Origin: Vicinamibacteria bacterium
Lineage (GTDB): Bacteria; Acidobacteriota; Vicinamibacteria; Marinacidobacterales; Marinacidobacteraceae
DNA length: 64,000 nt
Direction of reading: 5' to 3'
Assembly (NCBI GenBank): GCA_963668695.2
Contig: CAXXLQ010000001.1
Span: 69,807-133,806 of the forward strand
Part shown: positions 10,804 through 53,644 of the stretch, piece after piece
Layout: each line of letters starts with the position of its first letter
How positions within the stretch are numbered: position 1 is the stretch's first letter
Translations under genes and position numbers: made by a program
The notes under the pieces: generated by a model
What the model was told of the DNA's origin: nothing
The model's input: the letters and a program-made list of their open reading frames with translations, nothing else
The model's database searches: none

Positions 10804-11045
10804 CTAGCAGCCTGTGGTGGAACCCGGGTGAGCGCCGAGGCCGGCCAGTCCTCCCGGTGGGGGCGAGGCCCAGTTCTCCCGGTGGGGCCAGTCCTCCCGG
10901 TGGGGGCCCGGCTGACAAGGCGCGTGAGGGAGGAGTACCGGGTGTATTTCGACCGAAACGCAATGCAGAACGAAGCGAAGCGGAGTGGTTCAGCCGGGAT
11001 GCATCGCCGGGCGAACGCCGCCTGGGTTCCACCACAGGCTGCTAG
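10804..11045. mobile_element. MITE-like repeat element, family A, complete copy
   Basis: Perfect 22-nt terminal inverted repeats: ctagcagcctgtggtggaaccc (10804-10825) and gggttccaccacaggctgctag (11024-11045). Interior carries ccagt(c/t)ctcccggtgggg x3, ggctgacaaggcgcgtgagggagg and gtatttcgaccgaaacgcaatg modules shared with the other copies. No coding capacity. Confidence 0.7.
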
Positions 11046-11056
11046 GCGCGTTTAGC

Positions 11057-12256
11057 TCAGCGGAGCGTCGCCACTACCTTTCCGAGGGCCGTCAGGGAGA
11101 GCTCCGACAGGTTCAGCTCGTCGCCGCCCACGTTCCGGAGCAGAATCACCGCGGCGTCGGTCCCGGGCTCGATCCAGGCAGCCCCCCGGTATCCGGCCAC
11201 GCTGCCCCCGTGGCCATAGGCCGTGAAACTGTTGCCGTCGCTGTCGTCCGCGCGCCGCGCCATGAAGCCGAAGCCATAGCCACTCGAAAGATCTCCGGTC
11301 GCGAACGCCTTGGTCAGGTTGTCCTGCCGGACATCTGCGGGAATGACCCCGTCGAAAGGGGTCCCGGGGGCTCCGGTCAGGAACCGCAGGAACACCCCCA
11401 GGTCCTCGACCGTCGAATAGAGGGCGCCGTTCGGCACCTTGTAGCCGCGCCCCGCGTGTTCCCTCGCCGGCGTTTCGGCGTCGAGGCTTCCGTCGTCCTC
11501 TACGGTGAGTCCTTCCGCGATGCGGTCCTCAAGACTCGGTGTGGGGAAAAAGGTGCTCGAGTCCATCCCGAGCGGAGCCAGGAGGTTCTCCGCCACGTGC
11601 GCCATGAACGGCTCGCCGGCGGCCCGCTCCACGGCGGCGCCGAGCATCGCGTAGCCGATGTTCGAATACTGGTAGCGGGTACCGGGTTCGTACTCGAAGG
11701 AGGTCGCCTCGAGCGCCCGGAAGGCGGTATCGAGCCAATCTTCGGGGGCCCCCACCAGGTAGCGCGGGAGGTCCTGCGGTTCGCGGGCGAGCCCGCTGGT
11801 CATGGTTCCGAGCTGGAAAATGCTTGGTCCGGGGGTCCACGCATAGGGGTTGTCGACCTGCTCGAGTTCCGGCACCAGAATGGCGACCGGATCCCCCAGG
11901 CGCGCCTTCCCCTGGTGGACGAGCCGCAGCAGCGCCATGGCGGTGAACGGCTTCGTGATCGACCCGATGCGGAACAGGTGATCGGCCCGGGCAGGAATCT
12001 CGCCCTCGGTGTCCGCGAACCCGAATCCTTCCGCGAACAGCATTTCTCCGCCGACGAAGACCCCGAAGGCGGCGCCGCCGCGTCCGTCATCCTCGATGAC
12101 GCGGCGGATCTGTTCGGCGGCCGCAGCGGCGGCCTCCGGCAGCGACTGCGCCACCTCCGGTTCGGATCCAGGCCCACAGGTGAGGGTGGCGATCCCGAGT
12201 AGCAGGGAAGCCGCCAGCGGGCGGCTCGTGAGCGGAAAACGAACGTGGTGACGCAT
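11057..12256 (-). CDS. Serine hydrolase, beta-lactamase/transpeptidase-like (class C type)
   Basis: Track ORF 11057..12337, trimmed to ATG 12256 (MRHHVRFPLTSRPLAASLLLGIATLTC, signal/lipobox-like). Has the SxxK motif (GSITKPF) and YxN motif (YQYSNIGY). Confidence 0.85.
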   Translation of the reverse strand: MRHHVRFPLTSRPLAASLLLGIATLTCGPGSEPEVAQSLPEAAAAAAEQIRRVIEDDGRGGAAFGVFVGGEMLFAEGFGFADTEGEIPARADHLFRIGSITKPFTAMALLRLVHQGKARLGDPVAILVPELEQVDNPYAWTPGPSIFQLGTMTSGLAREPQDLPRYLVGAPEDWLDTAFRALEATSFEYEPGTRYQYSNIGYAMLGAAVERAAGEPFMAHVAENLLAPLGMDSSTFFPTPSLEDRIAEGLTVEDDGSLDAETPAREHAGRGYKVPNGALYSTVEDLGVFLRFLTGAPGTPFDGVIPADVRQDNLTKAFATGDLSSGYGFGFMARRADDSDGNSFTAYGHGGSVAGYRGAAWIEPGTDAAVILLRNVGGDELNLSELSLTALGKVVATLR

Positions 12257-12450
12257 GTCGAAGGGAACGATACCCGGAGGCCGGGGACGGCGTATTGGGC
12301 GTTTCGCCCCAGGTGGGCTCGGTTGACAACGGGTCATTCAGGGAGCGGCGAAGGGAGTTCGCTGCGCTGGCGCGCAGCGATGCCGGTCTGGAGACCGGCG
12401 GTCCCTGAACCGCGTCCCGTCCGGCCGCAGGGCGTTCCCCGGCGCGCTGA

Positions 12451-12735
12451 TAGCAGCCTGTAGTGAAACCCGCGCGGCCCAGTTCTCCCGGTGGGGGCTC
12501 GGCCGGCGATCCATCCCGGCCAAACAACCGGCAGTGAAACCCACGCGGCCCAGTTCTCCCGGTGGGGGCTCGGCCGGCGATCCATCCCGGCCAAACAGCC
12601 GGTGATGAAACCCACGCGGCCCAGTTCTCCCGGTGGGGGCTCGGCCGGCGATCCATCCCGGCCAAACAGCCGGTGATGAAACCCGCGCGGCCCAGTTCTC
12701 CCGGTGGGGGCTCGGCCGGCGATCCATGACCGGCT
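12451..12735. repeat. Tandem array, 4 x 71 bp (family A left-end module)
   Basis: cagttctcccggtggggg recurs at 12480, 12551, 12622 and 12693 (period 71). The unit is roughly cagccggtgatgaaacccacgcggcccagttctcccggtgggggctcggccggcgatccatcccggccaaa. Confidence 0.85.
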
Positions 12736-13229
12736 GTTCACCGCGTCGCTACGCGCCGCTCATCGTTGCGTTTCGGTCGGAATACACTCGGTATTCCTCC
12801 CTCACGCGCCTTGTCAGCCGGGCCCCCACCGGGAGGACTGGCCCCACCGGGAGAACTGGGCCTCGCCCCCACCGGGAGAACTGGCCAGCCTCGGCGCTCA
12901 CGTGGGTTCCACCACCGGCTGTTCACCGCGTCGCTACGCGCCGCTCATCGTTGCGTTTCGGTCGGAATACACCCGGTATTCCTTCCTCACGCGCCTTGTC
13001 AGCCGGGCGCCTCGCCCCCACCGGGAGAACTGGGCCTCGCCCCCACCGGGAGAACTGGCCGGCCTCGGCGCTCACGTGGGTTCCACCACCGGCTGTTCAC
13101 CGCGTCGCTACGCGCCGCTCATCGTTGCGTTTCGGTCGAAATACGCCAGGTATTCCTCCCTCACGCGCCTTGTCAGCCGGGCTCCTCGCCGGCCTCGGCG
13201 CTCACCCGGGCTCCACCACAGACTGCTAG
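12730..13229. repeat. Tandem array, 3 x ~175-185 bp (family A body plus right-end module)
   Basis: ccggctgttcaccgcgtcgctacgcgccgctcatcgttgcgtttcggtcg starts at 12730, 12915 and 13089. The last unit ends ...ccaccacagactgctag at 13229, 11 nt before the start codon at 13241. Confidence 0.85.
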
Positions 13230-13240
13230 GATCGTCGCCG

Positions 13241-16363: not shown

Positions 16364-16519
16364 CCGTTAGCACAAGAAAGCCGTTGGGAGTGCACATATT
16401 TTTGGGGTATCGCGTTGGATCCCTGTGATACATTGCCGTCCCTCGCGCACCGTGTTCTCCGGGACTTAGTGGCCCACCGCGCCACACCGCCTGGACCAAA
16501 GAAAGGAATCAGATCGAGC

Positions 16520-16795
16520 ATGACCAAGGTGGAACTCGTAACGACATTGTCAGAGTTTGCTGGAATCAGTCGTCGCGAAACCGCCGCGGTTCTCGACGGA
16601 CTGCGTGACCTGGCGATTGAGGAACTCAAGGCTGGCAACGGCTTCATGCTTCCGGGAATCGCCAAGTTTTCGGTTGCGCACCGGGAAGCGAGAATGGGCC
16701 GCAACGTCCGCACGGGGGAAGCCATTGAGATCCCGGCGCGGAATGTGGTGAAATGTAAAGTTTCACGCCCCTTCCAATCCGACTCCTGCGACTAG
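16520..16795 (+). CDS. HU-family nucleoid-associated DNA-binding protein
   Basis: Track ORF 16415..16795, trimmed to ATG 16520. MTKVELVTTLSEFAGISRRETAAVLDGL...GRNVRTGEAIEIPARNVVKCKVS is the HU/IHF fold signature. Its stop TAG (16793-16795) lies inside the CTAG end of the adjacent repeat element. Confidence 0.85.
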   Translation: MTKVELVTTLSEFAGISRRETAAVLDGLRDLAIEELKAGNGFMLPGIAKFSVAHREARMGRNVRTGEAIEIPARNVVKCKVSRPFQSDSCD

Positions 16796-16977
16796 CAGCC
16801 CGTAGACAAAGTCGCGCGGCGTTCGACCGGCGATGCATCCCGGCTGAACCGCGCCGCTACGCGTCGCTCATCGTTGCGCTTGGTCGAAATACACTCGGTA
16901 TTCCTCCCTCGCGCGCCTTGTCAGCCGGGCGCCTCACCGCTCTCGGCGCTCGTGCCACTTTATCCACGAGCTGCTAG
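16792..16977. mobile_element. MITE-like repeat element, family A (short copy)
   Basis: Ends are ctagcagcccgtagacaaagt... and ...actttatccacgagctgctag. Interior has cgctcatcgttgcgcttggtcgaaatacactcggtattcctccctcgcgcgccttgtcagccggg. Confidence 0.65.
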
Positions 16978-18760: not shown

Positions 18761-18787
18761 CACGCCTGCCGGACCGGGAGGTCACGG

Positions 18788-19630
18788 GTGACCCTTTCCA
18801 GCGACTCCCTCGCCCGGCCGGACCCACCGCCGCGGGCGGATCTCGCCGCGCGGCTCCTGGCCCGGGACCAACTCTCTCCCGATGCCCAGCTGCTCCGCTT
18901 CGAAAGTGAGGCGCCGCTTCGGGCTCTGCCGGGCCAGTTCACGATGGTGCGGGTCGAAGGCGGAGGGCTGCTGCGGCGGCCCTATTCCTTCTGCGACCTG
19001 CTGGAGGACGGTGCGTTCACCCTGCTGGTCAAGGAAGTCGGGATCGGGACCCGCGCGCTCATGAAGATGCCGGTCGGCGGAGCCATATCCAGTCTGGGCC
19101 CGCTCGGGACCACGTTCGATCCGCCCCCTCCGGACCTGACGCCGGTCATCGTCGCCGGCGGGGTGGGAATCGCGCCCTTCGTGCTCTTTTGCCGCCGCCT
19201 GGCCGAAACCGGGCGCCGCGGGATTGTGCTGCTCGGGGGCCGGCGTCGTCCCGACCTCTATCTCCGGGACACCTTCGAGGGTTTCGGGATGGACGTGCGG
19301 GTTGCGAGCGAGGACGGAAGCGCCGGCCACCATGGGCGCGTGACGGAGTTGCTCGACGCCGCCCTCGCGGACGCGGGTCGGCCGCAGCTCTACTCCTGTG
19401 GTCCGACCGGAATGCTGCTTCGCGTCGCGGAGGCCGGGGCCGACGCCGGCGTTCCTCATCAGGTCTCGATCGAGCGCCGGATGGGCTGCGGGATGGGATG
19501 CTGTTTGGGCTGCGTCGTCTGGGCCCGGCCGCCTTCCGGCGGCCCGGAGGAATACCTTCGGAGTTGCACCGAAGGACCGGTGTTCGACGCCGGAACAATC
19601 GCTTGGGACCAGGATCCCCACCCTCTCTAG
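18788..19630 (+). CDS. pyrK: Dihydroorotate dehydrogenase B electron-transfer subunit
   Basis: 280 aa. FAD/NAD-binding-like core with a C-terminal 2Fe-2S Cys cluster (MGCGMGCCLGCV...C), upstream of pyrD/pyrF. Its stop TAG (19628-19630) lies in a CTAGCAGCC repeat end. Confidence 0.8.
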   Translation: MTLSSDSLARPDPPPRADLAARLLARDQLSPDAQLLRFESEAPLRALPGQFTMVRVEGGGLLRRPYSFCDLLEDGAFTLLVKEVGIGTRALMKMPVGGAISSLGPLGTTFDPPPPDLTPVIVAGGVGIAPFVLFCRRLAETGRRGIVLLGGRRRPDLYLRDTFEGFGMDVRVASEDGSAGHHGRVTELLDAALADAGRPQLYSCGPTGMLLRVAEAGADAGVPHQVSIERRMGCGMGCCLGCVVWARPPSGGPEEYLRSCTEGPVFDAGTIAWDQDPHPL

Positions 19631-20305
19631 CAGCCCATGGAAGAAGCACCCCGGATGGCCGCCGCCGCGCGAGACGCGCGAAATCTACGGATTTCTCCGA
19701 ATGCGGAGCGCTTTTCCCTCGGGCGAGCAGCCTGTGGACAAAGTCACGCGGCATTCCCGAGCCAAGAGGGATGGGAGCCGGGTATCCCCGTCCCCCATCC
19801 CTCTCGCTCCGGGGTCTCCGCGGTGCTGGCGCCCCGCTCCGGAAGCCCGAGCCAGAAGGGATGGGGGTCGGGTGGCCCCGCCCCCCGTCCCTTCCGCTCC
19901 GGGGTCTCCGCGGTGCTTGCGCCCCGCTCCGGAAGCCCGAGCCAGAAGGGATGGGGGTCGGGTGGCCCCGCCCCCCGTCCCTTCCGCTCCGGGGTCTCCG
20001 CGGTGCTGGCGCCCCGCTCCGGAAGCCCGAGCCAGAAGGGATGGGGGTCGGGTGGCCCCGCCCCCCGTCCCTTCCGCTCCGGGGTCTCCGCGGTGCTGGC
20101 GCCCCGCTCCGGAAGCGAGCGGCGATGCACCCCGACTGGCCCCCACCGGGAGAACTGGCCGCCCCGCTTCGCGTGGCTCATCGTTGCGCTTCGGTCGAAA
20201 TACACTCGGGCCAGTTCTCCCGGTGGGGGCTCCTCCCTCGCGCGCCTTGTCAGCCGGGCGCCTCACCACTCTCGGTGCTCACGTCACTTTGTTTACAGGC
20301 TGCCT
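19627..20305. repeat. Composite family A repeat insert between pyrK and pyrD
   Basis: Starts ctagcagcccatgg, with a second end-like gagcagcctgtggacaaagtcacgcgg near 19723. Contains the 90-bp array and then the A body (cgtggctcatcgttgcgcttcggtcgaaatacactcgggccagttctcccggtggggg...ccttgtcagccggg). Ends cactttgtttacaggctgcc. Confidence 0.75.
19759..20116. repeat. Tandem array, ~4 x 90 bp (module B)
   Basis: atgggggtcg recurs at 19861, 19951 and 20041 (period 90). The units are near-identical over their whole length, so there are no unique spacers. The first unit is diverged and the last is truncated. Confidence 0.9.
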
Positions 20306-20433
20306 GCGGCGCGAATCGCTACGCGATTCACACCACGGTTTTTCGTGGGCAGGGGAAACCCCTCCCTATACCCCGCCCCTGCGGCGCTCCGCGCCGCTGG
20401 TTCACGATGGGCGACTTTCGCCACCGGTCTTCG

Positions 20434-21384
20434 ATGACTCCCGTCGCCTTGCCGTCCGTCGATATGGGAGTGGAAATCGCTGGTCTGAAGTTGCCCACGC
20501 CCCTGATTGCCGCCAGTGGAACCTTCGGCTACGGCGACGAGTACCAGCAGGTGGCGGACTACGACTGCATCGGAGCGATCTCGGTCAAGGGGCTGTACCT
20601 CGAACCCCGAAAGGGATGTCCGCCTCCGCGAATCTGGGAGACGCCGTCCGGTATGCTGAACGCCATCGGACTTCAGGAGGTCGGAATCCGGCGTTTCCTG
20701 GCCGAGAAGCTTCCGGTCGTCCGGGCCCTCGGCAAGATCGTCATTGCCAACATCTGCGGCAGTTCGCTCGCCGAGTACGGCGAGTTGGCCAGGATCCTCG
20801 ACCAGGCGGAGGGGGTTGCCGGCATCGAAGTGAACATTTCGTGTCCCAACGTTGCCGAGGGAGGGATCGAGTTCGGATGTGACCCGGACATGGCGGCGCG
20901 CGCCACTGAGGTGGTGCGCCGGGGGACCCGACTGCCGGTGATTCCGAAACTCAGTCCCAGCGCCAGCGACCTGGCCGCGGTGGCTCGCCGGGTTGCGGAG
21001 GCAGGAGCCGATGCGGTGTCCCTCATCAACACCATCCCCGCGATGGCAGTGGATGTGGAGACGCGCCGGCCGCGGCTCGCCAACGTAGTGGGGGGGTTGT
21101 CGGGCCCTGCGATTCGTCCGATTGCAGTCCGCATGGTGTGGGAGGTGGCGCGGGGCAGCCGGCTGCCGGTGATCGGCATGGGCGGAATCGCGAACGCCGA
21201 GGACGCCCTTGAATTCCTGCTCGTCGGGGCCGCGGCGGTGCAGATCGGCACCATGAACTTCGTGGACCCCGGGGTCTGGCGGCGCACTCTCGACGGCCTT
21301 GCCGCGTACTGCCGGCGGCACGAGGTTCCGGCGGTGCGCACGCTGACCGGCGCGATGCTCCCGGCTGCGGGGTCTCGGGCGTGA
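20434..21384 (+). CDS. pyrD: Dihydroorotate dehydrogenase, class 1B catalytic subunit
   Basis: Track ORF 19189..21384, trimmed to ATG 20434 (alternative ATG 20407). LKLPTPLIAASGTFGYGDEY, NAIGLQ, EVNISCPN and GIANAEDALEF are DHOD motifs. The upstream part of the ORF is repeat translation. Confidence 0.9.
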   Translation: MTPVALPSVDMGVEIAGLKLPTPLIAASGTFGYGDEYQQVADYDCIGAISVKGLYLEPRKGCPPPRIWETPSGMLNAIGLQEVGIRRFLAEKLPVVRALGKIVIANICGSSLAEYGELARILDQAEGVAGIEVNISCPNVAEGGIEFGCDPDMAARATEVVRRGTRLPVIPKLSPSASDLAAVARRVAEAGADAVSLINTIPAMAVDVETRRPRLANVVGGLSGPAIRPIAVRMVWEVARGSRLPVIGMGGIANAEDALEFLLVGAAAVQIGTMNFVDPGVWRRTLDGLAAYCRRHEVPAVRTLTGAMLPAAGSRA

Positions 21385-22836: not shown

Positions 22837-22850
22837 CGACTTCCGCTTCC

Positions 22851-24431: not shown

Positions 24432-24546
24432 GGATAGGCGAGGGGAGCCCGGGCCTCCTCCCTTCACGATTCCCTCGCCCGCTGGAATTCCGAAGCTCGG
24501 AGAGGTTCCGAACAAAGAGAACGATGTCAGCGGGGAATGGTTCCGC

Positions 24547-24709
24547 CTAACAGCCGGTGGTGGAACCCGCGTGAGCGCCGAGGCCGGCCAGTTCTCCCGG
24601 TGGGGGCGAGGCCCAGTTCTCCCGGTGGGGGTCCGGCTGACAAGGCGCGTGAGGGAGGAGCCCCCACCGGGAGAACTGGGCCGTGTGGGTTCCACTACCG
24701 GCTGTTGAG
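24547..24709. mobile_element. MITE-like repeat element, family A (163-bp short copy)
   Basis: Ends are ctaacagccggtggtggaaccc and gggttccactaccggctgttgag. Interior has ccagttctcccggtggggg x2, ggctgacaaggcgcgtgagggagg and ccaccgggagaactgg. Confidence 0.65.
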
Positions 24710-24745
24710 CTCCCCGATCCGGAGATTACCGGGGATTACCGGGGA

Positions 24746-25375
24746 TTACCGGGATTGCCGGATCTGGGCCGCAACTTCCAGGAAATAGGCATGGATGCGC
24801 GTATCGGTCGTCAGTTCCGGATGAAAGGTTGTCGCAAGCACCCGCCCTTCCCGGACGAAAGCCGACTGCCCGCGCCATTTCGCGAGCACGTGCACGTCCG
24901 CACCGGCGGCGCTGATGATTGGGGCGCGGATCATCACCAGAGGCAGGTCCGGCTCACCCAGCTCGGGACAGGGCGTCGCCCCGAGGTGGCTCTCCAACTG
25001 CCGGCCGTAACCGTTTCGCTGGATCTCGATGTCAAGCAGTGCAAGCGACTGCTGCGCCGGATTCTGGACGGCGCGGGCCAGGAGAATGGCTCCGGCGCAG
25101 GTCCCGTAGAGTGCGCCTCCCCGTTGATGGAAGGTTCTGAGGGGCTCGAAGAGTTCCTCCTCGAGGAGAAACTTCAGCATCGTCGAGCTTTCTCCGCCGG
25201 GGATGATGAGTCCATCGAGCCCGTCGAGGGCCGGAGTCCTGCGGACCTCTACCGCTTCGATGCCGAGTCGCTGCAGTATGGCCGTGTGCAGAGCGAAGCT
25301 CCCCTGAAGTGCGAGCACCCCGATGCGCGGCGAGGAAGGGGACCGGACAGGCTCCAACCGGGTCGGCGCTGTCAT
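24746..25375 (-). CDS. pdxT: Pyridoxal 5'-phosphate synthase glutaminase subunit
   Basis: 209 aa. IGVLALQGSF, IIPGGESSTM and GTCAGAILLA (catalytic Cys) motifs. Lies downstream of pdxS. Confidence 0.9.
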   Translation of the reverse strand: MTAPTRLEPVRSPSSPRIGVLALQGSFALHTAILQRLGIEAVEVRRTPALDGLDGLIIPGGESSTMLKFLLEEELFEPLRTFHQRGGALYGTCAGAILLARAVQNPAQQSLALLDIEIQRNGYGRQLESHLGATPCPELGEPDLPLVMIRAPIISAAGADVHVLAKWRGQSAFVREGRVLATTFHPELTTDTRIHAYFLEVAAQIRQSR

Positions 25376-27422: not shown

Positions 27423-27728
27423 GCCCCCCGCGCCCGAACCGCGCGGCGCTGCGCGCCGGGCTTCCGAAGTGCGGCGGGAGCCGCACGGAGACCCCGGAGC
27501 GGGAGGGGGTGGGGTCGGGAGACCCGACTCCCAGGCTCGGGCTTCCGAAGTGCGGCGGGAGCCGCACGGAGACCCCGGAGCGGGAGGGGGTGGGGTCGGG
27601 AGACCCGACTCCCAGCCGCTCCTGGCTCGGGAATCGCAACTCCCTTGCCCGCTGTTGGCGGGCGGCGGCGAGTTTCGATTCACGTTGTCTTCTTGTGAAA
27701 GGGGAGGGCCCCTTTCACACTTTCCCCC
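27423..27728 (+). repeat. Family D mosaic repeat: leader, 2 x 81-bp module B, spacer module, terminal hairpin
   Basis: cttccgaagt recurs at 27461 and 27542 (period 81). Then ctcgggaatcgcaactcccttgcccgc...gagtttcgatt. The hairpin tgtgaaaggggagggcccctttcaca plus ctttccccc spans 27694-27728. Confidence 0.8.
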
Positions 27729-30614: not shown

Positions 30615-30855
30615 GTGCGAGTGCGTGACCTTCTTTGACGGATGAACCCTGACGGAGTTCCTTGACCGGACGCGCCGGTCCTGCGGAGTCCGCTCTTTCC
30701 CAAAAGCGAGCGGGCGACGCAAAGTAAGCCGGAAAATTCTATCACCCGGGGAAAGTCGGCCTCCGGACGGAAAACCGGAGGCGGAGTGCCGTGCGCCCCC
30801 GCGCTCGCCCGGTAGTGTCTTTTCAAAGCGAGACACTACCCCTCGCCCCGCTCCG

Positions 30856-32907: not shown

Positions 32908-33224
32908 ACGACACAGCGATCACCCGCGCCCGCCTGGCTGCGGAGGTGTCGGAGGCCACGGGGATTACGCGTCGCGAAGCTGACCTCATCGTGGAGGCGG
33001 TTTTCGGCGCGATCGCCGGGGCTCTTCGTTCCGGAGACGAGGTGGAGATTCGCGGATTCGGCAGTTTCCGTTTACGAAGCCGAAAGGCGCGCCTCACGCG
33101 CAATCCGCGAACGGGTGAACAGATTACGGTGCCTCCGAAACGGGTGCCGTTCTTTCGAGCCGGAAAGGCTCTCCGCGACCGCCTCAATCGGGAGCCGAGC
33201 GAAGAGCCGTTGGGGGCGACCTAG
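32895..33224 (+). CDS. IHF/HU-family DNA-binding protein (IHF-beta-like)
   Basis: RGFGSFRLRSRKARLTRNPRTGEQITVPPKRVPFFRAGKALRDRLN. Start is TTG 32895 or GTG 32904, the latter overlapping the rpsA stop. Its stop TAG (33222-33224) lies in the CTAG end of the next repeat element. Confidence 0.85.
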   Translation: MEEVNDTAITRARLAAEVSEATGITRREADLIVEAVFGAIAGALRSGDEVEIRGFGSFRLRSRKARLTRNPRTGEQITVPPKRVPFFRAGKALRDRLNREPSEEPLGAT

Positions 33225-33479
33225 CAGCCCGTGGCAAAACCCACGCGGCCCAGTTCTCCCGGTGGGGGCTCGGCTGGCGATCCATCCCGCCCGAACCACT
33301 CCGCTTCGCTCCGTTCTTCGTTGCGTTTCGGTCGGAATACACCCGGGCCAGTTCTCCCGGTGGGGGCTCCTCCCTCACGCGCCTTGTCGGCCGGGCCCCC
33401 ACCGGGAGGACTGGCCCCACCGGGAGAACTGGGCCTCACCGACCTCGGCGCTCACGTGGGTTTCACCACAGGCTGCTAG
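33221..33479. mobile_element. MITE-like repeat element, family A, complete copy
   Basis: Ends are ctagcagcccgtggcaaaacccacgcgg and cacgtgggtttcaccacaggctgctag. All the internal A modules are present. Confidence 0.7.
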
Positions 33480-33598: not shown

Positions 33599-33858
33599 TG
33601 AACAGCCCGTGAATGAAGTCAAGTGGCCCGGTTCTCCCGGTGGGGGCTCGGCCGGCGATGCATCCCGGCTGAACCGCCCCCCCACCGGGAGAACTGGCGC
33701 TTCGCGTCGCTCATCGTTGCGCTTCAGTCGAAATACGCTGGGTATTCCTCCTTCGCGCGCCCTGTCAGCCGGGCCCCCACCGGGAGGACTGGCCCCACCG
33801 GGAGAACTGGGCCTCCCCGGTCTCGGCCCTCACATCACTCCATCCACGGGCTGTTGAG
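33599..33858. mobile_element. MITE-like repeat element, family A variant (CAGCCCGTG...CACGGGCTG ends)
   Basis: Ends are gaacagcccgtgaatgaagtcaagtgg and ccatccacgggctgttgag. Internal A modules are present. It ends at the nucleotide before the first possible icmF start codon. Confidence 0.65.
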
Positions 33859-39300: not shown

Positions 39301-41865
39301 GTGGAGATCAGCAATCCCCACCTTCCCGAAACCCGGACCGAACCCCCGGCCGGCCCTTCCGAGGGAGCGCCCACCGCCCGAACCGCGCCCACCGCCCGAA
39401 CCGCGCCTGCCCCGCTGCTCCTGCTGGCCGCCTCTTTCTGGGCAGGGGTCGCTGCTTCTGCGGTGATGCCCGGACCGCCGGTGTGGCCGCGATTCCTGCT
39501 GGGCGCACTGTTTGTGCTCGGGGCCGGCCTGCTCGCCCCGAGTCTGCTGGCTGAGAACCCACTTCGGCGGCGCCGGGGAGGCCGGCTCTCCGGGGCCCCC
39601 GCCGGCATCAAGACGGGGCTCCTGCTGGTAGCGGCATTTGTGGCTGGCGCCCTCAATCGTCCCGCTCCCGGAGCGGTGTCGCCCCTCGCCGAGACCGTCC
39701 GCGCTCTGGGTGCCGAACGCCTGGCACGCCCCGTCCGGCTCGAGGGAGTCCTGCTGTACGACGCGGAAGATTCCGGTCGTCGCACCTCGATCGCTCTGAA
39801 GGTGGATCGGCTGGCCGCCAACCGCCAGGAATGGCCGGTGCGCGGGGAGGCGCGGATCACCGTGGACGGCAATCACCGGGAGCACCTCCGAAGGCTTTCC
39901 CGAGGCACGCGAATCTCCATCTGGTCGCGGGTTTCCGAACCGCGCCCGCGGGGAAACCCGGGGGGGCGCGAGATTCGGGGGCCGGTCGCCCTCTTCGGCT
40001 CCACCAAGAGCGGAGTGCTGGTCCGGGAAGTCGCACCGGGGCCGGCGCCCTGGCGAGCATTGCAGGTTCTCAGAGCCCGGAGCCGGGAGCGCCTCCAGAG
40101 TGGAGGCTTCCCCGACGACGTGCTGGCGGTCGTGGCAGCGATGCTCATCGGAGATCGCACCCTGGCTCCGCCGGAGACGGAGCGGGCCTTCCGGGACGCG
40201 GGAACGCTTCACCTGATGGCGGTCAGCGGGCTCCACGTGGGACTGCTCAGCCTGCTGATCTATGGAATGGCGGTACTGGTCGGCGTACCGCGCCGGAAGG
40301 CGCTCGCGATTCTGTTGTTCGCGCTTCCGCTCTACGCCGCGCTCTGCGGAGCGCGCCCTTCGGTGGTGCGCGCTGTCCTGATGGCGACGGTCGTGATCCT
40401 GGGGTTGCGCCGCGGACTCTTTGGAGAGGCCATGAACGGGCTGGGGCTGGCCGCCTTGGTTTTGCTCGCCTGGTCGCCGTGGAACGCACTCGACGCGGGG
40501 TTCCAGCTCAGCTTCGCCGCCACCCTGGGGATCATCGCCGCCTTCCGTCCGGAAGACCCCGCCGAAGTCTCGTGGGAACGCCCGGGCCGCTGGCGCGCCT
40601 GGATTCTGGTTCCGTTGGGTGTCACGGTCGCGGCGCAGCTCGCTACCTTCCCCATCCTCGCCTGGCATTTCGGCCGGGTCGTGTTCGGCGGGCTGCTGAT
40701 CGCCGTTCCGGCCGGTCTGTTGGCGGGACCGGTTCTCGGTCTTGGGTTCGCCTGGCTGGCGCTTGCCGGGACCGGACTTCCGGCGGACGCCGTGGGCGCG
40801 CTTCTCACGATTGCCACCGAGGCTCTCATCGGGCTGAGCGAATGGGGCGCCGGGCTTTCGTTCGGCGCCTTTCCCGTGGCCCGCCCGGCGTTTATCTGGC
40901 TCCTGGCATGGCTGGGAACGGCGATCGTCGTCCTGACGCTCCGCGGTAGGCGAAGAATCCTGCCGGCCGCGCTCATCGTTCTCCTTGGTCTGGCCACGCT
41001 GCCGCTCTCGGAGCCTGCGGACGGGACACTTCGGCTCACCGCGCTGGATGTGGGGATGGGTGACGCGCTGGTTCTTGGCCTCCCCGCCGGCGGTGCGGTA
41101 CTCCTCGACGCGGGTACTGCATTCGATGGATGGAGCGCCGGCGAGGCGATCGTTACTCCGTTCCTGGCCGAAATGGGCTACCGGCGTCTCCGGGCCGCCG
41201 TTCCCACCCACGGGGATCTGGATCACGTTGGTGGTTTCCCGGCAGTGTTCCGCAACTTCAGAGTGGACGAACTCTGGGAAGGCGGAGGGACCGTGGAGGA
41301 TCGTCGCACCGCGGTCGGGCAGATACACCGCGAGCGGGTGCGGCGGGGGATTCCGCTGCGGCGCCTTAGAGCCGGGGAGCGTTTCGAGTTGGGCGGCGCC
41401 CGGTTCTCGGTGCTTGCCTCCGGCGACCACCGGCCCGGGCCGCGAGAGCGGTCCAACGAGCGCTCGGTCGTGCTGGCCGTGGACTACGCCGGAAAGCGGC
41501 TTCTTCTCACCGGCGACGCCGGGGAGGCAACCGAGCGGGTTTTGCTGGACCGCTATGGCGCGGCTCTGCGTTCGGATGTGCTCAAGGTCGGTCATCACGG
41601 CAGCCGCTCTTCCACGACGCCGGAGTTCCTCGCCGCGGTAGCCCCCCAGGTGGCGCTCGTTTCGGTCCGCGCCGATCCCAGACGGCGTCTTCCGGATGAC
41701 GGCGTGCTGGAGCGCCTCAGCAGAAGCGGCGCCCAGATCTACCGGACCGATCTATCCGGTGCGGTGACCGTCGCCATCGGCGCGGACGGCCGCATTTCCG
41801 TGAGCACGTTCCGTCCCGAAGGAGCGCCAGGAGCGCCGGTCCGCAGACCGGCATCGCGGCCGTAG
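39301..41865 (+). CDS. comEC: DNA internalization-related competence protein ComEC/Rec2 with C-terminal metallo-beta-lactamase domain
   Basis: Track ORF 39007..41865, trimmed to GTG 39301. Polytopic core with FRDAGTLHLMAVSGLHVG. MBL motifs LTALDVGMGDA and THGDLDHVGG. Confidence 0.85.
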   Translation: MEISNPHLPETRTEPPAGPSEGAPTARTAPTARTAPAPLLLLAASFWAGVAASAVMPGPPVWPRFLLGALFVLGAGLLAPSLLAENPLRRRRGGRLSGAPAGIKTGLLLVAAFVAGALNRPAPGAVSPLAETVRALGAERLARPVRLEGVLLYDAEDSGRRTSIALKVDRLAANRQEWPVRGEARITVDGNHREHLRRLSRGTRISIWSRVSEPRPRGNPGGREIRGPVALFGSTKSGVLVREVAPGPAPWRALQVLRARSRERLQSGGFPDDVLAVVAAMLIGDRTLAPPETERAFRDAGTLHLMAVSGLHVGLLSLLIYGMAVLVGVPRRKALAILLFALPLYAALCGARPSVVRAVLMATVVILGLRRGLFGEAMNGLGLAALVLLAWSPWNALDAGFQLSFAATLGIIAAFRPEDPAEVSWERPGRWRAWILVPLGVTVAAQLATFPILAWHFGRVVFGGLLIAVPAGLLAGPVLGLGFAWLALAGTGLPADAVGALLTIATEALIGLSEWGAGLSFGAFPVARPAFIWLLAWLGTAIVVLTLRGRRRILPAALIVLLGLATLPLSEPADGTLRLTALDVGMGDALVLGLPAGGAVLLDAGTAFDGWSAGEAIVTPFLAEMGYRRLRAAVPTHGDLDHVGGFPAVFRNFRVDELWEGGGTVEDRRTAVGQIHRERVRRGIPLRRLRAGERFELGGARFSVLASGDHRPGPRERSNERSVVLAVDYAGKRLLLTGDAGEATERVLLDRYGAALRSDVLKVGHHGSRSSTTPEFLAAVAPQVALVSVRADPRRRLPDDGVLERLSRSGAQIYRTDLSGAVTVAIGADGRISVSTFRPEGAPGAPVRRPASRP

Positions 41866-42029
41866 GCCGCGAGACTCACACCACCACCCTCGCCCATTGC
41901 CCGGATCCGTCCGGGGACGGCGAAGCGAACCCCGTGTTTCCTCCCGGTGGGGGCTCCTCCCTCGCCGTTGCCAGCGGGACGCCTCGCCCCCACCGGGAGA
42001 ACTGGCCGCTGATGTCACATTGTCCACCC

Positions 42030-42734
42030 TCAGGGCATGCGGCGAACCGCGTTCCGGAGAGCCGATTCGGGATCCAATCCATCCTGCCGGGCTCCCCGCG
42101 CGACCGCCAGCAGGAGGTCGCCGAGGGCCGTCTCGACTGCGTCTCGATCTTCGGCCCGCCGCGCGGCCTTCATCTTCGTGAGTGCGGCGAGAATGGCGTC
42201 CTGGTCCGGCCCGTCCCCCTGGCTGGAGGCCGCTGTGCGTTCGATGGCCTTCATAGCAAGCAACAGCGCCGGAAGACCCCGGGGCAGGGGACCTCGTTCC
42301 GCGGGGCGTCCGGACTTTTCGGAGGCCTTGATCGCTTCCCAGCTCGCGAGTGCTTCGTCCGCATTCGAGGCGCGCTCCTGCCCTCCGAAGACGTGGGGGT
42401 GGCGGCGGATCAACTTGCGCGTGATCCCGCGGGCCACCTCCGCCATGCCGAAACGGCCCTCCTCATGGGCGATCTGAGCCATGAAGACCACCTCGAGCAG
42501 CAGGTCACCACACTCCTCGAGGACGGCAGACGGATCCTCGCGGTCCACGGCGTCCACCAATTCGTGTGCTTCCTCAAGCACATAGCGGCGCAGGGATTGC
42601 CAGGTCTGCTCCCGGTCCCAGGGGCAGCCCTCCTGGGCCCGCAGCTTCGCCATCACTTCGATCAGGCCGGCAACCTCGGCGGCGCCGGCGGCTGCGGGTT
42701 CAGGGACTCGGGAGATGTCTCTTGGATTCTTCAT
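42030..42734 (-). CDS. mazG: Nucleoside triphosphate pyrophosphohydrolase
   Basis: Track ORF 42030..42779, trimmed to ATG 42734. Has LRAQEGCPWDREQTWQSLRRYVLEEAHELVDAV and a second EEGRF...RRHPHVF half. Confidence 0.85.
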   Translation of the reverse strand: MKNPRDISRVPEPAAAGAAEVAGLIEVMAKLRAQEGCPWDREQTWQSLRRYVLEEAHELVDAVDREDPSAVLEECGDLLLEVVFMAQIAHEEGRFGMAEVARGITRKLIRRHPHVFGGQERASNADEALASWEAIKASEKSGRPAERGPLPRGLPALLLAMKAIERTAASSQGDGPDQDAILAALTKMKAARRAEDRDAVETALGDLLLAVARGARQDGLDPESALRNAVRRMP

Positions 42735-42746
42735 GAGGGGGCCCGA

Positions 42747-43037
42747 GTGTATTGCGAGCGAAGCGCAACGATGAGCCACGCGAAGCCGGGCGGTTCAGCC
42801 GGGATGCATCGCCGCTCGGGCTTCCGTAGCGGGGCGCGAGCACCGCGGAGACCCCGGAGCGGAAGGGACGGGTGGCGGGGCTACCCGACCCCCATCCCTT
42901 CTGGCTCGGGCTTCCGTAGCGGGGCGCGAGCACCGCGGAGACCCCGGAGCGAGAGGGATGGGGGACGGGGACACCCGGCCCCGATCCCTCTTGACTCGGG
43001 AATGCCGCCGGACTTTGTTCACCGGCTGTTCACCGCC
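42747..43037. repeat. Composite family A fragment carrying 2 x 90-bp module B
   Basis: gtgtattgcgagcgaagcgcaacgatgagc...ggttcagccgggatgcatcgcc. gctcgggcttccgtagc then recurs at 42814 and 42904 (period 90). Ends gactttgttcaccggctgttcac. Confidence 0.75.
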
Positions 43038-47371: not shown

Positions 47372-47384
47372 TCACGAGTAGTCG

Positions 47385-48842: not shown

Positions 48843-48856
48843 GCGCCCGAGCGGCC

Positions 48857-49315: not shown

Positions 49316-49369
49316 GCCGGGTCGGGCTCGGACGGGGCGGTATACTCGCTCGCCTTTCTCCAAGGCCGG

Positions 49370-49444
<75 letters not shown>

Positions 49445-49460
49445 GTTATGGGTAGGTCAG

Positions 49461-49533
49461 GGCGGCGTAGCCAAGTGGCCAAGGCGGAGGTCTGCAAAAC
49501 CTCTATTCGGCGGTTCGAATCCGCCCGCCGCCT
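49461..49533 (+). tRNA. tRNA-Cys (anticodon GCA)
   Basis: Acceptor ggcggcg/cgccgcc, anticodon arm gaggt-ctGCAaa-acctc, T arm ggcgg-ttcgaat-ccgcc. No encoded CCA. Confidence 0.9.
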
Positions 49534-49625
49534 CCGCCACTTATCCTGACCGGATGCGCCGCTGACGGCGTGTCCGGTGCGTGTATCCGTCTTTGCGGCG
49601 ATGGGAATCGCCGCCAGACAGGCCG

Positions 49626-49711
49626 GCCGGGATGGCGAAATCGGCAGACGCGGGAGACTTAAAATCTCTTGTCCCCAACGGGACGTGCGGGTTCGAGCCC
49701 CGCTCCCGGCA
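49626..49711 (+). tRNA. tRNA-Leu (anticodon TAA), class II with long variable arm
   Basis: Acceptor gccggga/tcccggc, anticodon loop ctTAAaa, variable arm gtcccc-aac-ggggac-like, T arm gcggg-ttcgagc-cccgc. Confidence 0.85.
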
Positions 49712-49780
49712 GGCCGAAGCGGACGGGGCGGGGGGCGCACTTGATCGGGGTGGTAGCGAGCGGTGAAGTTGTTGGGAATC

Positions 49781-49921
49781 GCGCCCCCCGTCCCGTCCGC
49801 CCCGGCGCTTCGCGCCGGCAATCGAAACTTCCTTGCTCGCCTCCGGCGGGCTGCGGCAAGTTCCGATTGGTCGTTACTGATTGTGAAAGGGGGGGGTGCC
49901 CCCCTTTCACACTTTCCCCCC
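49781..49921 (+). repeat. Family D mosaic repeat (copy without module B) ending in the conserved hairpin
   Basis: gcgccccccgtcccgtccgccccggcgcttcgcgccggc | aatcgaaacttccttgctcgcc...ggcaagttccgattggtcgt | tgtgaaaggggggggtgcccccctttcaca ctttcccccc (hairpin at 49882-49921). Confidence 0.75.
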
Positions 49922-50177
49922 GGAGCCGCGTTCGGCTGCGCCGTGCGGATCCCCCATCCCATCCTGTTCTTGCCGCTCGGGATCCGCCTAGAGCGCCGCG
50001 GCGACGCGCCCCGGTTCCGCATCGCCATGATCGAGTCAGTGGTGCGATCCGTGTCCTGCTAGGTCGTCCACGCGTCCTTGCCGTTTTCTGTTCGCCGCGA
50101 GCTCATGCCATCGCGGACTGGGTAACGAAACACGACCGTGCGGCATTACCCAGCGAGTTCCGATCCCCGACCTTCGG

Positions 50178-50291
50178 TCCGGCCAAGAACGCGGCCCACT
50201 GCTCCATGAGCGCCCGCCGCCGACAACCAGGTCGGTGCGCCGGGAGGGCACCTCGATTCTGTGTGTTCGCATGGGCCAGCGCCAGCTCCCA
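50178..50291 (-). pseudogene. Tyrosine-recombinase (phage-type integrase) C-terminal fragment 1
   Basis: The minus-strand frame reads WELALAHANTQNRGALPAHRPGCRRRALMEQWAAFLAG. This resembles the ...LAH...AAY...DLFERRR.LM..WA.FL tail of P4-type integrases. There is no upstream catalytic domain. Confidence 0.5.
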
Positions 50292-50348
50292 GACCGCCCT
50301 GAGAGTGACCACCAAACCTCCCGGCATCGCTTTCAACGGGGAGTTGAG

Positions 50349-50642
50349 TCATCTGCCCGGCGAATCGCACCCAATTGATCTCGTGGGCTCGTAGCGACCT
50401 CGCCCCGTTCTGGAAACGCGCCCCGCCCTAACGAGTCTCGCCAAGATTCCGGTAGTAATGCTGTCGTAGATCGCTTTGTCCTTGCCGAATCCAACGTCCC
50501 GATCGATTCCAGCGCGTCTGCTGATTTCGGCGGGGCCGAGAACTTCCCCTACCTGATGAGCGTTGACGATTACCGCCATCACGGCCTCGTCCAAACAGTG
50601 CATTCCAATGCGAGCGAGTACGGCTGCTAGTTGGTGGGCCAT
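50349..50642 (-). CDS. Small hypothetical protein, possibly winged-helix DNA-binding
   Basis: Internal ATG of track ORF 50349..50888: MAHQLAAVLARIGMHCLDEAVMAVIVNAHQVGEVLGPAEISRRAGI...ITTGILARLVRAGRVSRTG. It lies in a patch of visibly lower G+C between the two integrase fragments. Weak call. Confidence 0.3.
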   Translation of the reverse strand: MAHQLAAVLARIGMHCLDEAVMAVIVNAHQVGEVLGPAEISRRAGIDRDVGFGKDKAIYDSITTGILARLVRAGRVSRTGRGRYEPTRSIGCDSPGR

Positions 50643-50763
50643 GAGCGCTGCTTTCCTGTGGGTTGATTTGAGACTGATGGGGCCAGCTTCGGGCGGACAT
50701 TGTCCATCACCCTCCCCGCCGCGACCGACCGGCGGGCGAACCCGGATCCCGCGCTCCCTGTCC

Positions 50764-50930
50764 TGATCAGGAACGCGGCCCACTGCTCCATGAGCGCCCG
50801 GCCGCCGCTCGAACAGGTCTTTCTGTCGGTACGCGGCCTCGATACGGTTCGTGTTCACGTGCGCCGGGGCCAGCTCTCGGTCGCGCACGCTGGGCGCGGT
50901 TGCAGAAAGCTCGGCCCGGCCCGCTACTCG
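50764..50930 (-). pseudogene. Tyrosine-recombinase C-terminal fragment 2 (frameshifted)
   Basis: The minus strand reads ...RDRELAPAHVNTNRIEAAYRQKDLFERR and then, in another frame, ALMEQWAAFLI. This is the same integrase tail as fragment 1, interrupted by a frameshift and lacking the catalytic core. Confidence 0.55.
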
Positions 50931-51865
50931 TTTAGTGCGTCAATGTTCCCGCGCAGGCTGAAAACTGCCTGCAAGACGCCATCCGCGCGGGGGGCCGCGC
51001 CGGGGGCCAGCGCAGCGGATCGATTCCCGGAAACGCAAGGGAGTCAACGGGTTTCGGGTGCGACGGTGGCGGACCTCCTTTCACACTTTCCCCCCGGACA
51101 CGCTGGCGTCAAACCCTGCGGGTTCGCCGCCGTGAGTTTTTCCTCGTTTGGCGCACCGCAGTCTCACGCCGCCATCCATCCGGCAGGTCGAACGAACCCC
51201 GGAGGGGGTCGTCCGGCGCTTCGCGCCGGGCTTCCGAAGTGCGGCGAGATCCGCGCGGAGACCCCGGAGCAGGAGGGATTGGGGTCGGGGGCGCGACGCG
51301 CAGCGAGATCGCGCATCGCCGACCGCGAAGAAGCGCGGGGACGGCTTGGAACGCCGGTTTCCGACCGGCATCGCGCGGGAGCGCGAAACCAGCGCCGATG
51401 ACGCTGCGCTGTGCCAACGTGAGGGCCGCACCACCTTTGAGTCCCGGAGGGCGCGACCGATCGCTGCTCCCGCTACCCGGGACGCGCCGTTTTCATGACG
51501 CGCGAGGGTGTGGAGGAGGACCCGATCGTGAGGGTTTCTCCCGGTGGGGGCCGGCACCGCCAGCCGGAGGCTGGTGAAGGTTGTGCTACCGAACGCCGGG
51601 GGGTTTACAATCCGAAATGAACCCGAGTGGTCCACTGCGCTCCGGCTTATGGAACCGAACGGGAGTCACCACTGCCGGGTGGGACGCGCCTCCCGCGAGC
51701 GGCGCCAATCGGCGCCGGGCGGGAAGCCCGAGCCTGGCACGCGACGCCCACCTACGACATCGTAGGACGGAACCAGAGGACCGCCGGGTTCACCTTCGGG
51801 TCGAGCGGTCCGGAAGGGGGGCTGCCCAGTTCGGATAGTGATGCGTAGTCGGTTTGCTACCGGTT

Positions 51866-52096
51866 GCGCCCCCCTTCCGAACCGCCCGGCGCTTCGCGCC
51901 GGCCTTCCGAAGTGCGGCGGGAGCCGCACGGAGACCCCGGAGCAGGAGGGGCTGGGGTCGGGAGACCCGACTCCCAGCCGCTCCTGGCTCGGGAATCGAA
52001 ACTTCCTTGCCCGCTTCGGGCGGGCTACGGCAAGTTCCGATTGGTCGTAGTCAATTTGTGAAAGGGGGAGGTGCCCCCCTTTCACACTTTCCCCCC
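51866..52096 (+). repeat. Family D mosaic repeat (one module B copy) ending in the conserved hairpin
   Basis: gcgccccccttccgaaccgcccggcgcttcgcgccgg | cttccgaagtgcggcgggagccgcacggagaccccggagcagg... | ctcgggaatcgaaacttccttgcccgc...ggcaagttccgattggtcgt | tgtgaaagggggaggtgcccccctttcaca ctttcccccc (hairpin at 52057-52096). Confidence 0.8.
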
Positions 52097-52240
52097 TCGG
52101 GTCGAGCGGTCAGGGAGGGGGGGTGTCAGGCGCCAGAAAAGAGGGGAGCCCTCCGCGTTTCGTCGCGCTCGCGCGCGACGAGGCCGGTCGGAGGCCGGAG
52201 GCCCCTATAGGGCGCTATCCGGCGGGTGAGCGGAGAGTCG

Positions 52241-53383
52241 TCATCCCAGGGCTTGGTCCAGATCGGCGATCAGATCGGCCGGATGCTCCAATCCGACGGA
52301 CACCCGAATGAGATCGCGGGGGGTCTTGGTGTCCGGTCCCTCGACGAGCGCGCGGTGCTCTACCAGGCTTTCGACGCCGCCCAGGCTCGTTGCCCGCGTG
52401 AAGAGTTTGATGCGCGAGAGCACGCCCTTCGCGTGATCCTCTCCTCCGAGGGCCCGGAAGGAGAGCATGGCGCCGTAACCGTCTCCCTGGCGGGTCTGGA
52501 CTGCGTGTCCGGGATCCGAAGCGAGCCCCGGATAGAAAGTCGCCGCCACGCGGGGATGGCCGCTCAGGAACTCCGCGAGCTTTCCCGCCGTCTCCGACTG
52601 GGCCCGGATCCGGACGGGCAGGGTTCTCATCCCTCGGCGGAGCAGCCAGGCGTCGAACGGAGATGGCACCGGGCCGGTCTCGGTTTGCACGAAACGCAGC
52701 CGTGAGGCGAGTTCGAGACCTTCCCGCAGCACGACCGCTCCGCCGGTTACGTCGCTGTGCCCGCCGAAGTACTTCGTGGTGGCGTGGATCACGATGTCCG
52801 CGCCGAGAGCCAGTGGCCGCTGAAGAACCGGTGTCATCCAGGTGTTGTCCACGGCGACCAGCGCTCCCACGGCGCGGCAGCGGGCGGCGACGGCCGCGAT
52901 GTCGGTGATTCGCAGGGTGGGGTTCGAGGGGGTCTCCAGGATGGCGAGCGCGGGCCGTTCGTCAAGGCCGGCGGTTACGTCCTCCGGGTCCAGGAAATCG
53001 GTGAAGCGGGTCCGGAGCCCCCAGCGAGCGAGAGACTCCTTCGCGAGGCGCACGGTCCCGTGATAGGCGTCCTGCGGCGCCAGGACGAGATCTCCGGGCG
53101 AGAGGGTCAGGAGAAGCGAATGAACGGCGGCGAGTCCCGAGGCAAAGCTCACGCACTCCGCGCCTCCCTCCAGGTCGGCGACCGCCTGCTCGAGCGCCGT
53201 CCGATCCGGATTGCCGCTGCGTCCGTAGATGAAGTCCGAAGCGAGGTTCCCCTCGGGATCTCGCCGGAACGTGGTCGAGAGGTGGATCGGCGGCGCCACG
53301 GCCCCCGCCAGGTTCTCGGAGGAGCCGGCGTGCACGCTCCGGGTCTCGATCCGGTAATTCTTCTTGTCGTCCATGCGGCGCAT
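52241..53383 (-). CDS. Cys/Met-metabolism PLP-dependent enzyme (cystathionine gamma-synthase/lyase family)
   Basis: Track ORF 52241..53734, trimmed to ATG 53383 (alternative 53374); upstream is repeat translation. Has YGRSGNPDRTALE, VDNTWMTP and HATTKYFGGHSD (PLP Lys). Confidence 0.85.
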   Translation of the reverse strand: MRRMDDKKNYRIETRSVHAGSSENLAGAVAPPIHLSTTFRRDPEGNLASDFIYGRSGNPDRTALEQAVADLEGGAECVSFASGLAAVHSLLLTLSPGDLVLAPQDAYHGTVRLAKESLARWGLRTRFTDFLDPEDVTAGLDERPALAILETPSNPTLRITDIAAVAARCRAVGALVAVDNTWMTPVLQRPLALGADIVIHATTKYFGGHSDVTGGAVVLREGLELASRLRFVQTETGPVPSPFDAWLLRRGMRTLPVRIRAQSETAGKLAEFLSGHPRVAATFYPGLASDPGHAVQTRQGDGYGAMLSFRALGGEDHAKGVLSRIKLFTRATSLGGVESLVEHRALVEGPDTKTPRDLIRVSVGLEHPADLIADLDQALG

Positions 53384-53420
53384 TATGCGGTTCGGACCCG
53401 GCCACGGCGTCCACCGGAGC

Positions 53421-53644
53421 ACTAGCAGCCTGTGGATAAAGTGGCGTGAGCGCCGAGAGTGGCGAGGCGCCCGGCTGACAAGGCGCGCGAGGGAGGAGCC
53501 CCCACCGGGAGAACTGGCCCGAGTGTATTTCGACCGAAGCGCAACGATGAGCGAGGCGAAGCGCCAGTTCTCCCGGTGGGGGGGCGGTTCAGCCGGGATG
53601 GATCGCCGGTCGAACGCCGCGTGACTTTGTTCACAGGCTGCTAG
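53421..53644. mobile_element. MITE-like repeat element, family A, complete copy
   Basis: Ends are ctagcagcctgtggataaagtgg and gactttgttcacaggctgctag, with internal A modules. It sits between the divergent PLP-enzyme and ECF sigma genes. Confidence 0.7.

Follow-up and report, generated by a model that had tools for sequence, protein, structure and literature searches.

A family of TA-inserting mobile elements, small and non-coding, in uncultured marine Acidobacteria

The stretch of DNA analysed here (64,000 nt, hereafter the window; Vicinamibacteria bacterium, assembly GCA_963668695.2, contig CAXXLQ010000001.1, positions 69,807 to 133,806) carries related non-coding repeats with inverted ends in gaps between its genes. 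Are these repeats mobile, what is their target and which type of enzyme could move them? The repeats do belong to one genuine family. Its members are small mobile non-coding elements, inserting at TA, found in uncultured marine Acidobacteria; their interior is unusually variable. They are very probably non-autonomous DNA transposons (MITEs, for miniature inverted-repeat transposable elements) inserted at TA. Positions refer to the window unless a locus is named; L followed by a number designates a locus from a related strain or genome.

An earlier note on this DNA had proposed a TA (or CTAG) target duplication, and had made mobility depend on presence/absence polymorphism and on a consistent flanking duplication; both are found. 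All three clean pairs of orthologous filled and empty sites show TA duplicated. The element 16792-16977 is present in the window (GCGAC-TA-[GCAGCC...GCTGC]-TA-GCCTCC) and absent from L104 (GCGAC-TA-GCCTCC), a strain about 95% identical to the window (from ERZ25067264). The site at ~17105 is empty in the window (GCCT-TA-GCGG) and occupied by a 185-nt copy in L104 (GCCT-TA-[ACAGCC...GGCTGT]-TA-GCGG). In one spacer, L104 and the window have copies that belong to different subfamilies and stand at different points. The element 33221-33479 was compared in ten strains, retrieved through a small conserved protein. It is present in the window (CGACC-TA-[GCAGCC...GGCTGC]-TA-GCCCGC) and in L112, and absent (CGACC-TA-GCCCGC) from L108, L111, L113 and L114, whose flanks are nearly identical to those of the window. 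In L111, a second element is found inside the TA flanking a first one (...GGCTGT-TA-ACAGCC...). Further presence/absence cases are found between species at 85-94% identity. A strain 99.4-99.7% identical to the window shows internal length changes only, with no presence/absence differences of copies. The same junctions are found in independent assemblies from several samples, and the ends are conserved in at least eight related genomes.

How many bases are duplicated? TA directly precedes 112 of the 156 ends examined in related genomes (TA background, 1%), C or T precedes the TA position in 143 and the first element base is G or A in 151. This Y-TA-R context could also point to the same kind of element moved by an IS5/PIF-Harbinger-type transposase (target YTAR, 3-4-bp duplication), the element proper then being CAGCC...GGCTG. 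Such an enzyme would agree with the Y-TA-R context of most copies and with the commonest flank combinations, which are CTAG...CTAG and TTAA...TTAA; two of the three clean sites (CTAG) are equally consistent with a 4-bp duplication. However, in the 58 oriented elements that have TA on both sides, identical tetranucleotide flanks are found only in 22 and identical trinucleotide flanks in 33-38, whereas the bases adjoining the TAs are complementary, like inverted-repeat termini, in 49. In addition, the L104 copy reads TTAA...TTAG over an empty TTAG, which needs an extra mutation under the 4-bp model and none under a 2-bp duplication. Because of these flank counts and of this site, TA is considered to be the duplication and Y-TA-R a preferred context, and an enzyme of the IS5/PIF-Harbinger type is regarded as unlikely.

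Stop codons are often the targets. Three window ends supply TA and G as the stop of a real gene (stops at 16795, 19630 and 33224), and the empty alleles of the 16792-16977 and 33221-33479 sites show TAG as the insertion target. An HU gene (16520-16795) ends in the TAG whose TA received the first of these two elements; for the second, it is the TAG stop of an HU/IHF-family gene (32895-33224; Pfam PF00216, 1e-30). In related genomes, a crude screen, which gives both false positives and false negatives, places the in-frame stop of a coding-like open reading frame of at least 80 codons at 25 of the 142 TAR ends. Since the element begins with G or A, its insertion in TAG or TAA regenerates the stop; since TA is rare in a 67% G+C genome, these stop codons are many usable targets. 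The G/A first base may be an adaptation to living in stop codons rather than survivorship. Two of the three clean sites are TAG stops of HU/IHF-family genes; this may be due to chance (both end in CTAG) or may hint at targeting.

The description of bacterial MITEs in the literature (PMC2229807) agrees with the family in most respects: the elements are small and non-coding, have inverted ends and TA at both termini with duplication, occur as many dispersed copies with position polymorphism between strains, and form a stem-loop by end pairing. Several points weigh against MITEs inserted with a TA duplication. The base outside the TA and the one with which the element starts are correlated (odds ratio 3.3, p 0.003); a plain 2-bp duplication does not predict this, and it counts in favour of the IS5/PIF-Harbinger reading. 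The element 19719-20305 is missing from L104 and lacks TA flanks. The spacer between ribF and the STAS gene, empty in the window and filled in L107-L110, is 5 nt off a simple empty site, a hint of possible excision footprints. The elements are 67% G+C, without the A+T-richness that is given as true of 'most' bacterial MITEs and not as a requirement (PMC2229807). Neither the window nor 1.5 Mb of related DNA contains a transposase-sized pair of these ends, the search in related DNA being for inward-facing end pairs 0.5-3 kb apart (837 kb, then 1.5 Mb including 43 JGI metagenome loci); the autonomous partner suggested by the earlier note was thus not found there. Lastly, a 56-aa frame inside the element, chosen as following a Shine-Dalgarno-like GGGAGGA and a GTG, matches only spurious open reading frames of 40-95 aa among 5.8 billion proteins.

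The statement of the earlier note that the window encodes no transposase is borne out over ~1077-60015: none of the genes called there has a transposase domain. The only candidate end pair, L053 1243-2470, encloses a tRNA and small ordinary genes. The gene next to a solo end in L119 encodes a 689-aa membrane protein and no transposase. A 2.28-kb insertion found in one strain only (L111 1617-3896, corresponding to window ~30800-30830) carries an IS1-type DDE open reading frame (PF03400, 1e-6); its ends are unrelated to the family and it was rejected as a partner. Its target is the loop of a hairpin (GGTAGTGTC...GACACTACC) that has the POR gene on one side and the S1 gene on the other.

A 2-bp TA duplication is a signature of IS630/Tc1-mariner enzymes (PMC2229807), and by this single feature the enzyme that moves the family would be of this type. 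Other small families with different insides have the same 13-nt ends (for example TAGCAGCCCGTGGAAGAAGCACCCC...), some being present or absent between species; their copies include window 19627-19722, L064 396-610, L012 1099-1313, L028 6613-6709 and L125 from 1606. Several families sharing these ends would fit one transposase serving several passengers. The following steps are proposed. A transposase encoded elsewhere would recognise the element ends and would excise or copy the element, which would be inserted at a TA in Y-TA-R context, the TA being duplicated. The upstream gene would retain a stop after insertion, the element starting with G or A. Resident copies then change fast by gain and loss of tandem units of 18, 71, 90 or 174 nt, and recombination between 18-nt units deletes or joins segments, leading to a mosaic look. 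Any effect on the flanking genes would be hypothetical.

Complete copies read (Y)TA-RCAGCCTGTGG inward at both ends. The inverted ends begin RCAGCCYGTGG and the two arms are similar over ~60 nt. The 116 elements from related genomes have common ends and one A-type and one B-type arm each. A end: continues ...CGTGAGCGCCGAG. B end: continues ...CACGCGGC, then one of three alternatives. Two end subtypes are found, GTGRAACCC and AYAAAGTSR, both ends of one copy carrying the same subtype. Some ends read by eye GCCTAAC...GTTGAGC, which recalls an integron attC site; this candidate was rejected, as most ends are without AAC/GTT and their gene neighbours have housekeeping roles instead of being cassettes. 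The basic copy (181 nt plus one TA on each side, 185 nt) has the commonest length, and 24 canonical copies of 185 nt from several species give a nearly gapless alignment, most columns being >90% conserved. Lengths are quantised (185, 203, 221, 239 and 257 nt, i.e. steps of 18 nt). The extra length comes from an 18-nt unit, CCAGTYCTCCCGGTGGGG, found at about five fixed consensus sites (~40, 57, 75-84, 115-123 and 157); its orientation at each site permits pairing between opposite arms. In some copies, 90-nt units resembling those of a second repeat family, family D, are nested at consensus position ~153. The mean G+C of 125 elements is 0.67, equal to that of the genome (~67% over the 64 kb of the window).

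Because the two arms are similar over ~60 nt, a single strand folds as one long hairpin, which in the canonical copy runs from end to end (-110 kcal/mol, z -8.7). The 224-nt copy 53421-53644 has the same fold (z -10.3), and its two 18-nt units, inverted relative to each other, form a 19-bp extension of the stem. Of the 62 consensus pairs, 19 have two-sided changes among the 24 canonical copies; one of these is a central pair, U-A in 13 copies but C-G in 11 others, and in some copies the stem of a small internal hairpin is rewritten. Such changes could mean that the element is primarily a structured RNA (or single-strand DNA) that serves the host, for example in processing or stabilising operon transcripts, mobility being secondary. 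Several copies lie within operons and hence must be transcribed, and all six co-directional copies of the window are, by our own reading, in one orientation. This orientation bias is however not significant across related genomes (12 versus 5, p 0.14), and near-identical strains show the copies to be dispensable. A consensus scan for promoters and terminators gave nothing inside the elements. The Rfam check proposed by the earlier note gave no match for the family: Rfam 15 detects only three tRNAs in the window at gathering score (49370-49711), the sub-threshold hits being chance microRNA-hairpin matches on 90-nt units. The counts of two-sided changes are by themselves no proof of selection on structure because the copies are mutually related: such changes can arise without selection in related copies, and would also be expected if one protein binds both ends. 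A host-kept structure as the primary explanation is judged very unlikely.

Copies of this transposon-like family change rapidly once in place. Indels of at least 9 nt between the window and 16 strain loci are mostly whole repeat units; the mosaic structure is thus considered to have arisen largely in situ, through slippage and through recombination of short repeats inside the elements. Tandem units of the family are 71, 90 and 174 nt long, and their numbers vary between near-identical strains, changes being seen between strains at least 97% identical. The 18-nt run at 33775-33810 has 2 copies in the window and 2-4 among strains. The 90-nt unit at 42814-43000 is present in 1 copy in L101 (99.4% strain), ~2 in the window and 18.1 in L109, where the array is 99% identical across 1.6 kb. 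The element 24545-24709 is 165 nt long in the window versus ~485 nt in L105 (99.6% strain), where it is a composite; the junction lies within an 18-nt unit and the length difference maps to recombination between 18-nt units.

Mosaic composition is also a feature of REP/BIME-like elements (repetitive extragenic palindromic sequences and bacterial interspersed mosaic elements), which would be spread by a REP-associated tyrosine (RAYT, Y1) transposase or by recombination, the 18-nt unit being the 'REP'. This unit does occur single, in tandem and in inverted pairs, as well as outside the elements, in another hairpin repeat. It is however not palindromic, whereas REPs are imperfect palindromes of 20-40 nt; the elements, unlike REPs, possess defined inverted ends and duplicate TA, and no Y1 transposase domain is found in the gene tables of the locus; a REP/BIME origin is extremely improbable. 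The solo unit was found in 51 contexts (L005-L104), mostly within a different hairpin repeat of ~33 nt (GTGCCGGyCkGrAGrCCGGCGTTCCAAGCC), often at one of two positions. At the orthologous site window ~12395, a solo unit is present in L104 and absent from the window. Viral contigs gave 2 isolated matches. CCAGTYCTCCCGGTGGGG may propagate separately, colonising fixed sites of the MITE and a second unrelated hairpin repeat, rather than being a mere slippage product, although this is doubtful. If so, it would be spread by a sequence-specific process (for example, a site for a recombinase or nuclease, repair from a template, or a selected signal for uptake or binding), and the MITE would be a platform for nested short mobile units. 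In some variants of the ~33-nt repeat (family of window ~12380-12400) the sequence is TTCAGACCGGCAT, similar by eye to the uptake sequence of Neisseria; this similarity is probably a coincidence.

In the window, self-BLAST recovers all the intervals listed in the earlier note, and adds stand-alone family-D pieces at 27457-27634, 51198-51290 and 51900-51996. The total is 3,694 nt (5.8% of the 64 kb), close to the ~4 kb claimed for the family and family D together. The shared inverted ends are confirmed: TARCAGCCBGTGG, with at most one mismatch, has 16 matches versus 0.25 expected, a number reached by none of 100 shuffles. The shared internal modules are likewise found, the 18-nt unit having 29 matches versus 0 expected; GGCTGACAAGGCGCGTGAGGGAGG and GTATTTCGACCGAAACGCAACGATGAGC are also visible. 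The repeats had been said to occupy most intergenic gaps. This holds for the majority of gaps >250 nt (by our own count on public gene calls, main-family sequence in 9 of ~14, family D only in 2 more) but is slightly generous, most shorter gaps being empty.

The individual copies are as follows, + and - giving the strand. The complete element 10804..11045 (+, 242 nt) has the 22-nt perfect inverted ends previously reported, CTAGCAGCCTGTGGTGGAACCC being present at both ends, and three 18-nt units (10845-10905). It is located between two minus-strand genes, 11 nt past the stop of a beta-lactamase-family gene (11057-12256). The composite array 12451..13229 (-) has a left B-type end and a right A-type end, and consists of 3.9 copies of a 71-nt unit (12454-12727) followed by units of ~174-185 nt; L104 retains only the last ~150 nt. 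A CRISPR was considered for 12454-12727 and rejected: repetition, at 95% identity, extends over the full 71 nt, and unique spacers are lacking. The element 16792..16977 (-) is a canonical 185-nt element without the 18-nt unit.

The interval 19627-20305, previously taken as one element, corresponds to two. The first, 19627..19722 (+, ~95 nt), is a short piece from another small family that shares the 13-nt end (TAGCAGCCCATGGAAGAAGCACCCC...); a PyrK-like gene (18788-19630) has the TAG of this piece as its stop, and the piece is also found in L104. The second, 19719..20305 (-), is a main-family element with 4.0 tandem 90-nt units (19756-20116), located between the pyrK-like and pyrD genes. Two other copies do belong to the family as previously listed, but their limits differ: 24545..24709 (+), listed as 24547-24709, is internally deleted, and 42735..43037 (+), listed as 42747-43037, is truncated on the left, abuts the mazG start and has 2.1 tandem 90-nt units (42814-43000).

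The element 33221..33479 (-) is complete (259 nt, four 18-nt units). The neighbouring element 33599..33858 (-) is complete, with the tandem 18-nt run mentioned above; it has degenerate flanks, as does 24545-24709, TG or TGA replacing one TA. The complete element 53421..53644 (+) lies in a divergent promoter region and is found in all three strains compared. No strand is assigned to the remaining pieces. The fragment 4195..4280 has a degenerate A-type end and 18-nt units, and lies between two DUF5916 paralogues. The fragment 41925..42030, between comEC and mazG, is without recognisable ends and contains one 18-nt unit and a CTCCTCCCTCGC module; it is also found in L101 and L102. Among the family-D pieces, 27457..27634 is an array made of two units of 81 nt each, which are related to the 90-nt units that main-family elements contain and differ in copy number among strains; 51198..51290 and 51900..51996 are one unit each.

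The host is a Vicinamibacteria, near 'Candidatus Marinacidobacterium', a genus that itself belongs to Vicinamibacteria. Window proteins are found on ENA metagenome contigs including one of 2.05 Mb (ERZ28669063:ctg66711), 99.4-99.7% identical to the window over the parts compared. With one genome taken per species, the matches listed for the 18-nt unit are almost all in metagenome-assembled genomes labelled Acidobacteriota, Vicinamibacteria or 'Candidatus Marinacidobacterium', some of them bins named after sponge studies; the outside matches among those listed (Georgenia, Pseudarthrobacter and a gammaproteobacterial metagenome-assembled genome) are single and in coding sequence. The canonical element has no match in the plasmid database. 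In the literature searched, no paper names 'Candidatus Marinacidobacterium' and none describes MITEs in sponge Acidobacteria.

Other variable features are found in the window. Three tandem DUF5916 paralogues (1-6651, ~80-86% nucleotide identity) have the fragment 4195-4280 between copies 2 and 3; only one copy is found at the syntenic position in the related metagenome-assembled genome L042. A 1.15-kb segment (49925-51075), absent from L101 and flanked by a ~22-nt direct repeat (CCTTTCACACTTTCCCCCCGGA), is located just downstream of the tRNA-Gly/Cys/Leu cluster; its open reading frames are without Pfam match except a weak AbiEi_4, and it looks like a small integrated remnant. Tandem repeats with a strain-variable copy number are found inside genes at 39367-39407 (18-nt unit, comEC), 32828-32858 (15-nt unit, end of the S1 gene) and 41820-41841 (9-nt unit, near the comEC end). 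Short intergenic tandem repeats at 24719-24761, 54753-54813 and 6641-6680 (10-, 15- and 20-nt units) vary versus the closest strains.

How does the family compare with known systems? RUP (repeat unit of pneumococcus), likewise small, non-coding and intergenic, has inverted ends and inserts at TA; it is thought to be moved by IS630-Spn1 and is the best-argued bacterial MITE served by an IS630-family transposase (PMC2229807). RUP is however 107 bp long and A+T-rich, and its ends match a known insertion sequence in its own genome, whereas the elements described here are at least 185 nt long, 67% G+C and without partner among the 1.5 Mb of related DNA. Correia/NEMIS elements of Neisseria (Correia, 100-160 bp) are abundant, have inverted ends with TA at both termini, a long stem-loop transcript and size classes due to an internal segment, and have no known transposase (PMC2229807); they differ by two size classes instead of an 18-nt ladder with nested tandem units, and by an unrelated host phylum. 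ERIC/IRU, YPAL and Rickettsia palindromic elements are also dispersed long hairpins (100-170 bp), with mobility evidenced by filled and empty sites in related strains (PMC2229807); unlike the present elements, YPAL is without TA ends and makes 3-26-bp duplications. The Rickettsia elements are in frame within genes, whereas those described here are outside coding sequence, using the stop codon itself.

The family is no new class of mechanism. It works like RUP or Correia, but is unrelated to them in sequence and host. It differs from most described MITEs in being G+C-rich, in the 18-nt steps of its lengths and in the variable tandem units nested within it. The small non-coding repeats (SNRs) of Deinococcus radiodurans are mosaic intergenic repeat families (60-215 bp) in a genome of ~67% G+C; the likeness is one of description, the phylum is another one, and we know of no evidence of TA duplication for SNRs. 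The MIRU-VNTR of mycobacteria are intergenic repeats in operons whose tandem unit number varies between strains, and BOX of pneumococcus combines end modules with a variable number of internal modules. Neither is a TA-duplicating inverted-repeat transposon, whereas the variable units described here are nested inside a MITE.

Public gene calls include 'proteins' of 260 aa (window 19637-20437) and 534 aa (L109 15708-17312) that lie wholly on 90-nt units; they are without Pfam match and almost certainly correspond to false genes. Because unit copy numbers differ between near-identical strains, the elements are ready-made strain markers as well as a source of assembly errors. The relevance of the family is mainly for specialists of mobile DNA and for those who assemble or type these uncultured Acidobacteria. 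The targeting of stop codons with regeneration of the stop is a neat example of survival for a TA-specific element in a G+C-rich, gene-dense genome. Uncultured marine and sponge-associated Vicinamibacteria gain a documented, recently active family of mobile elements.

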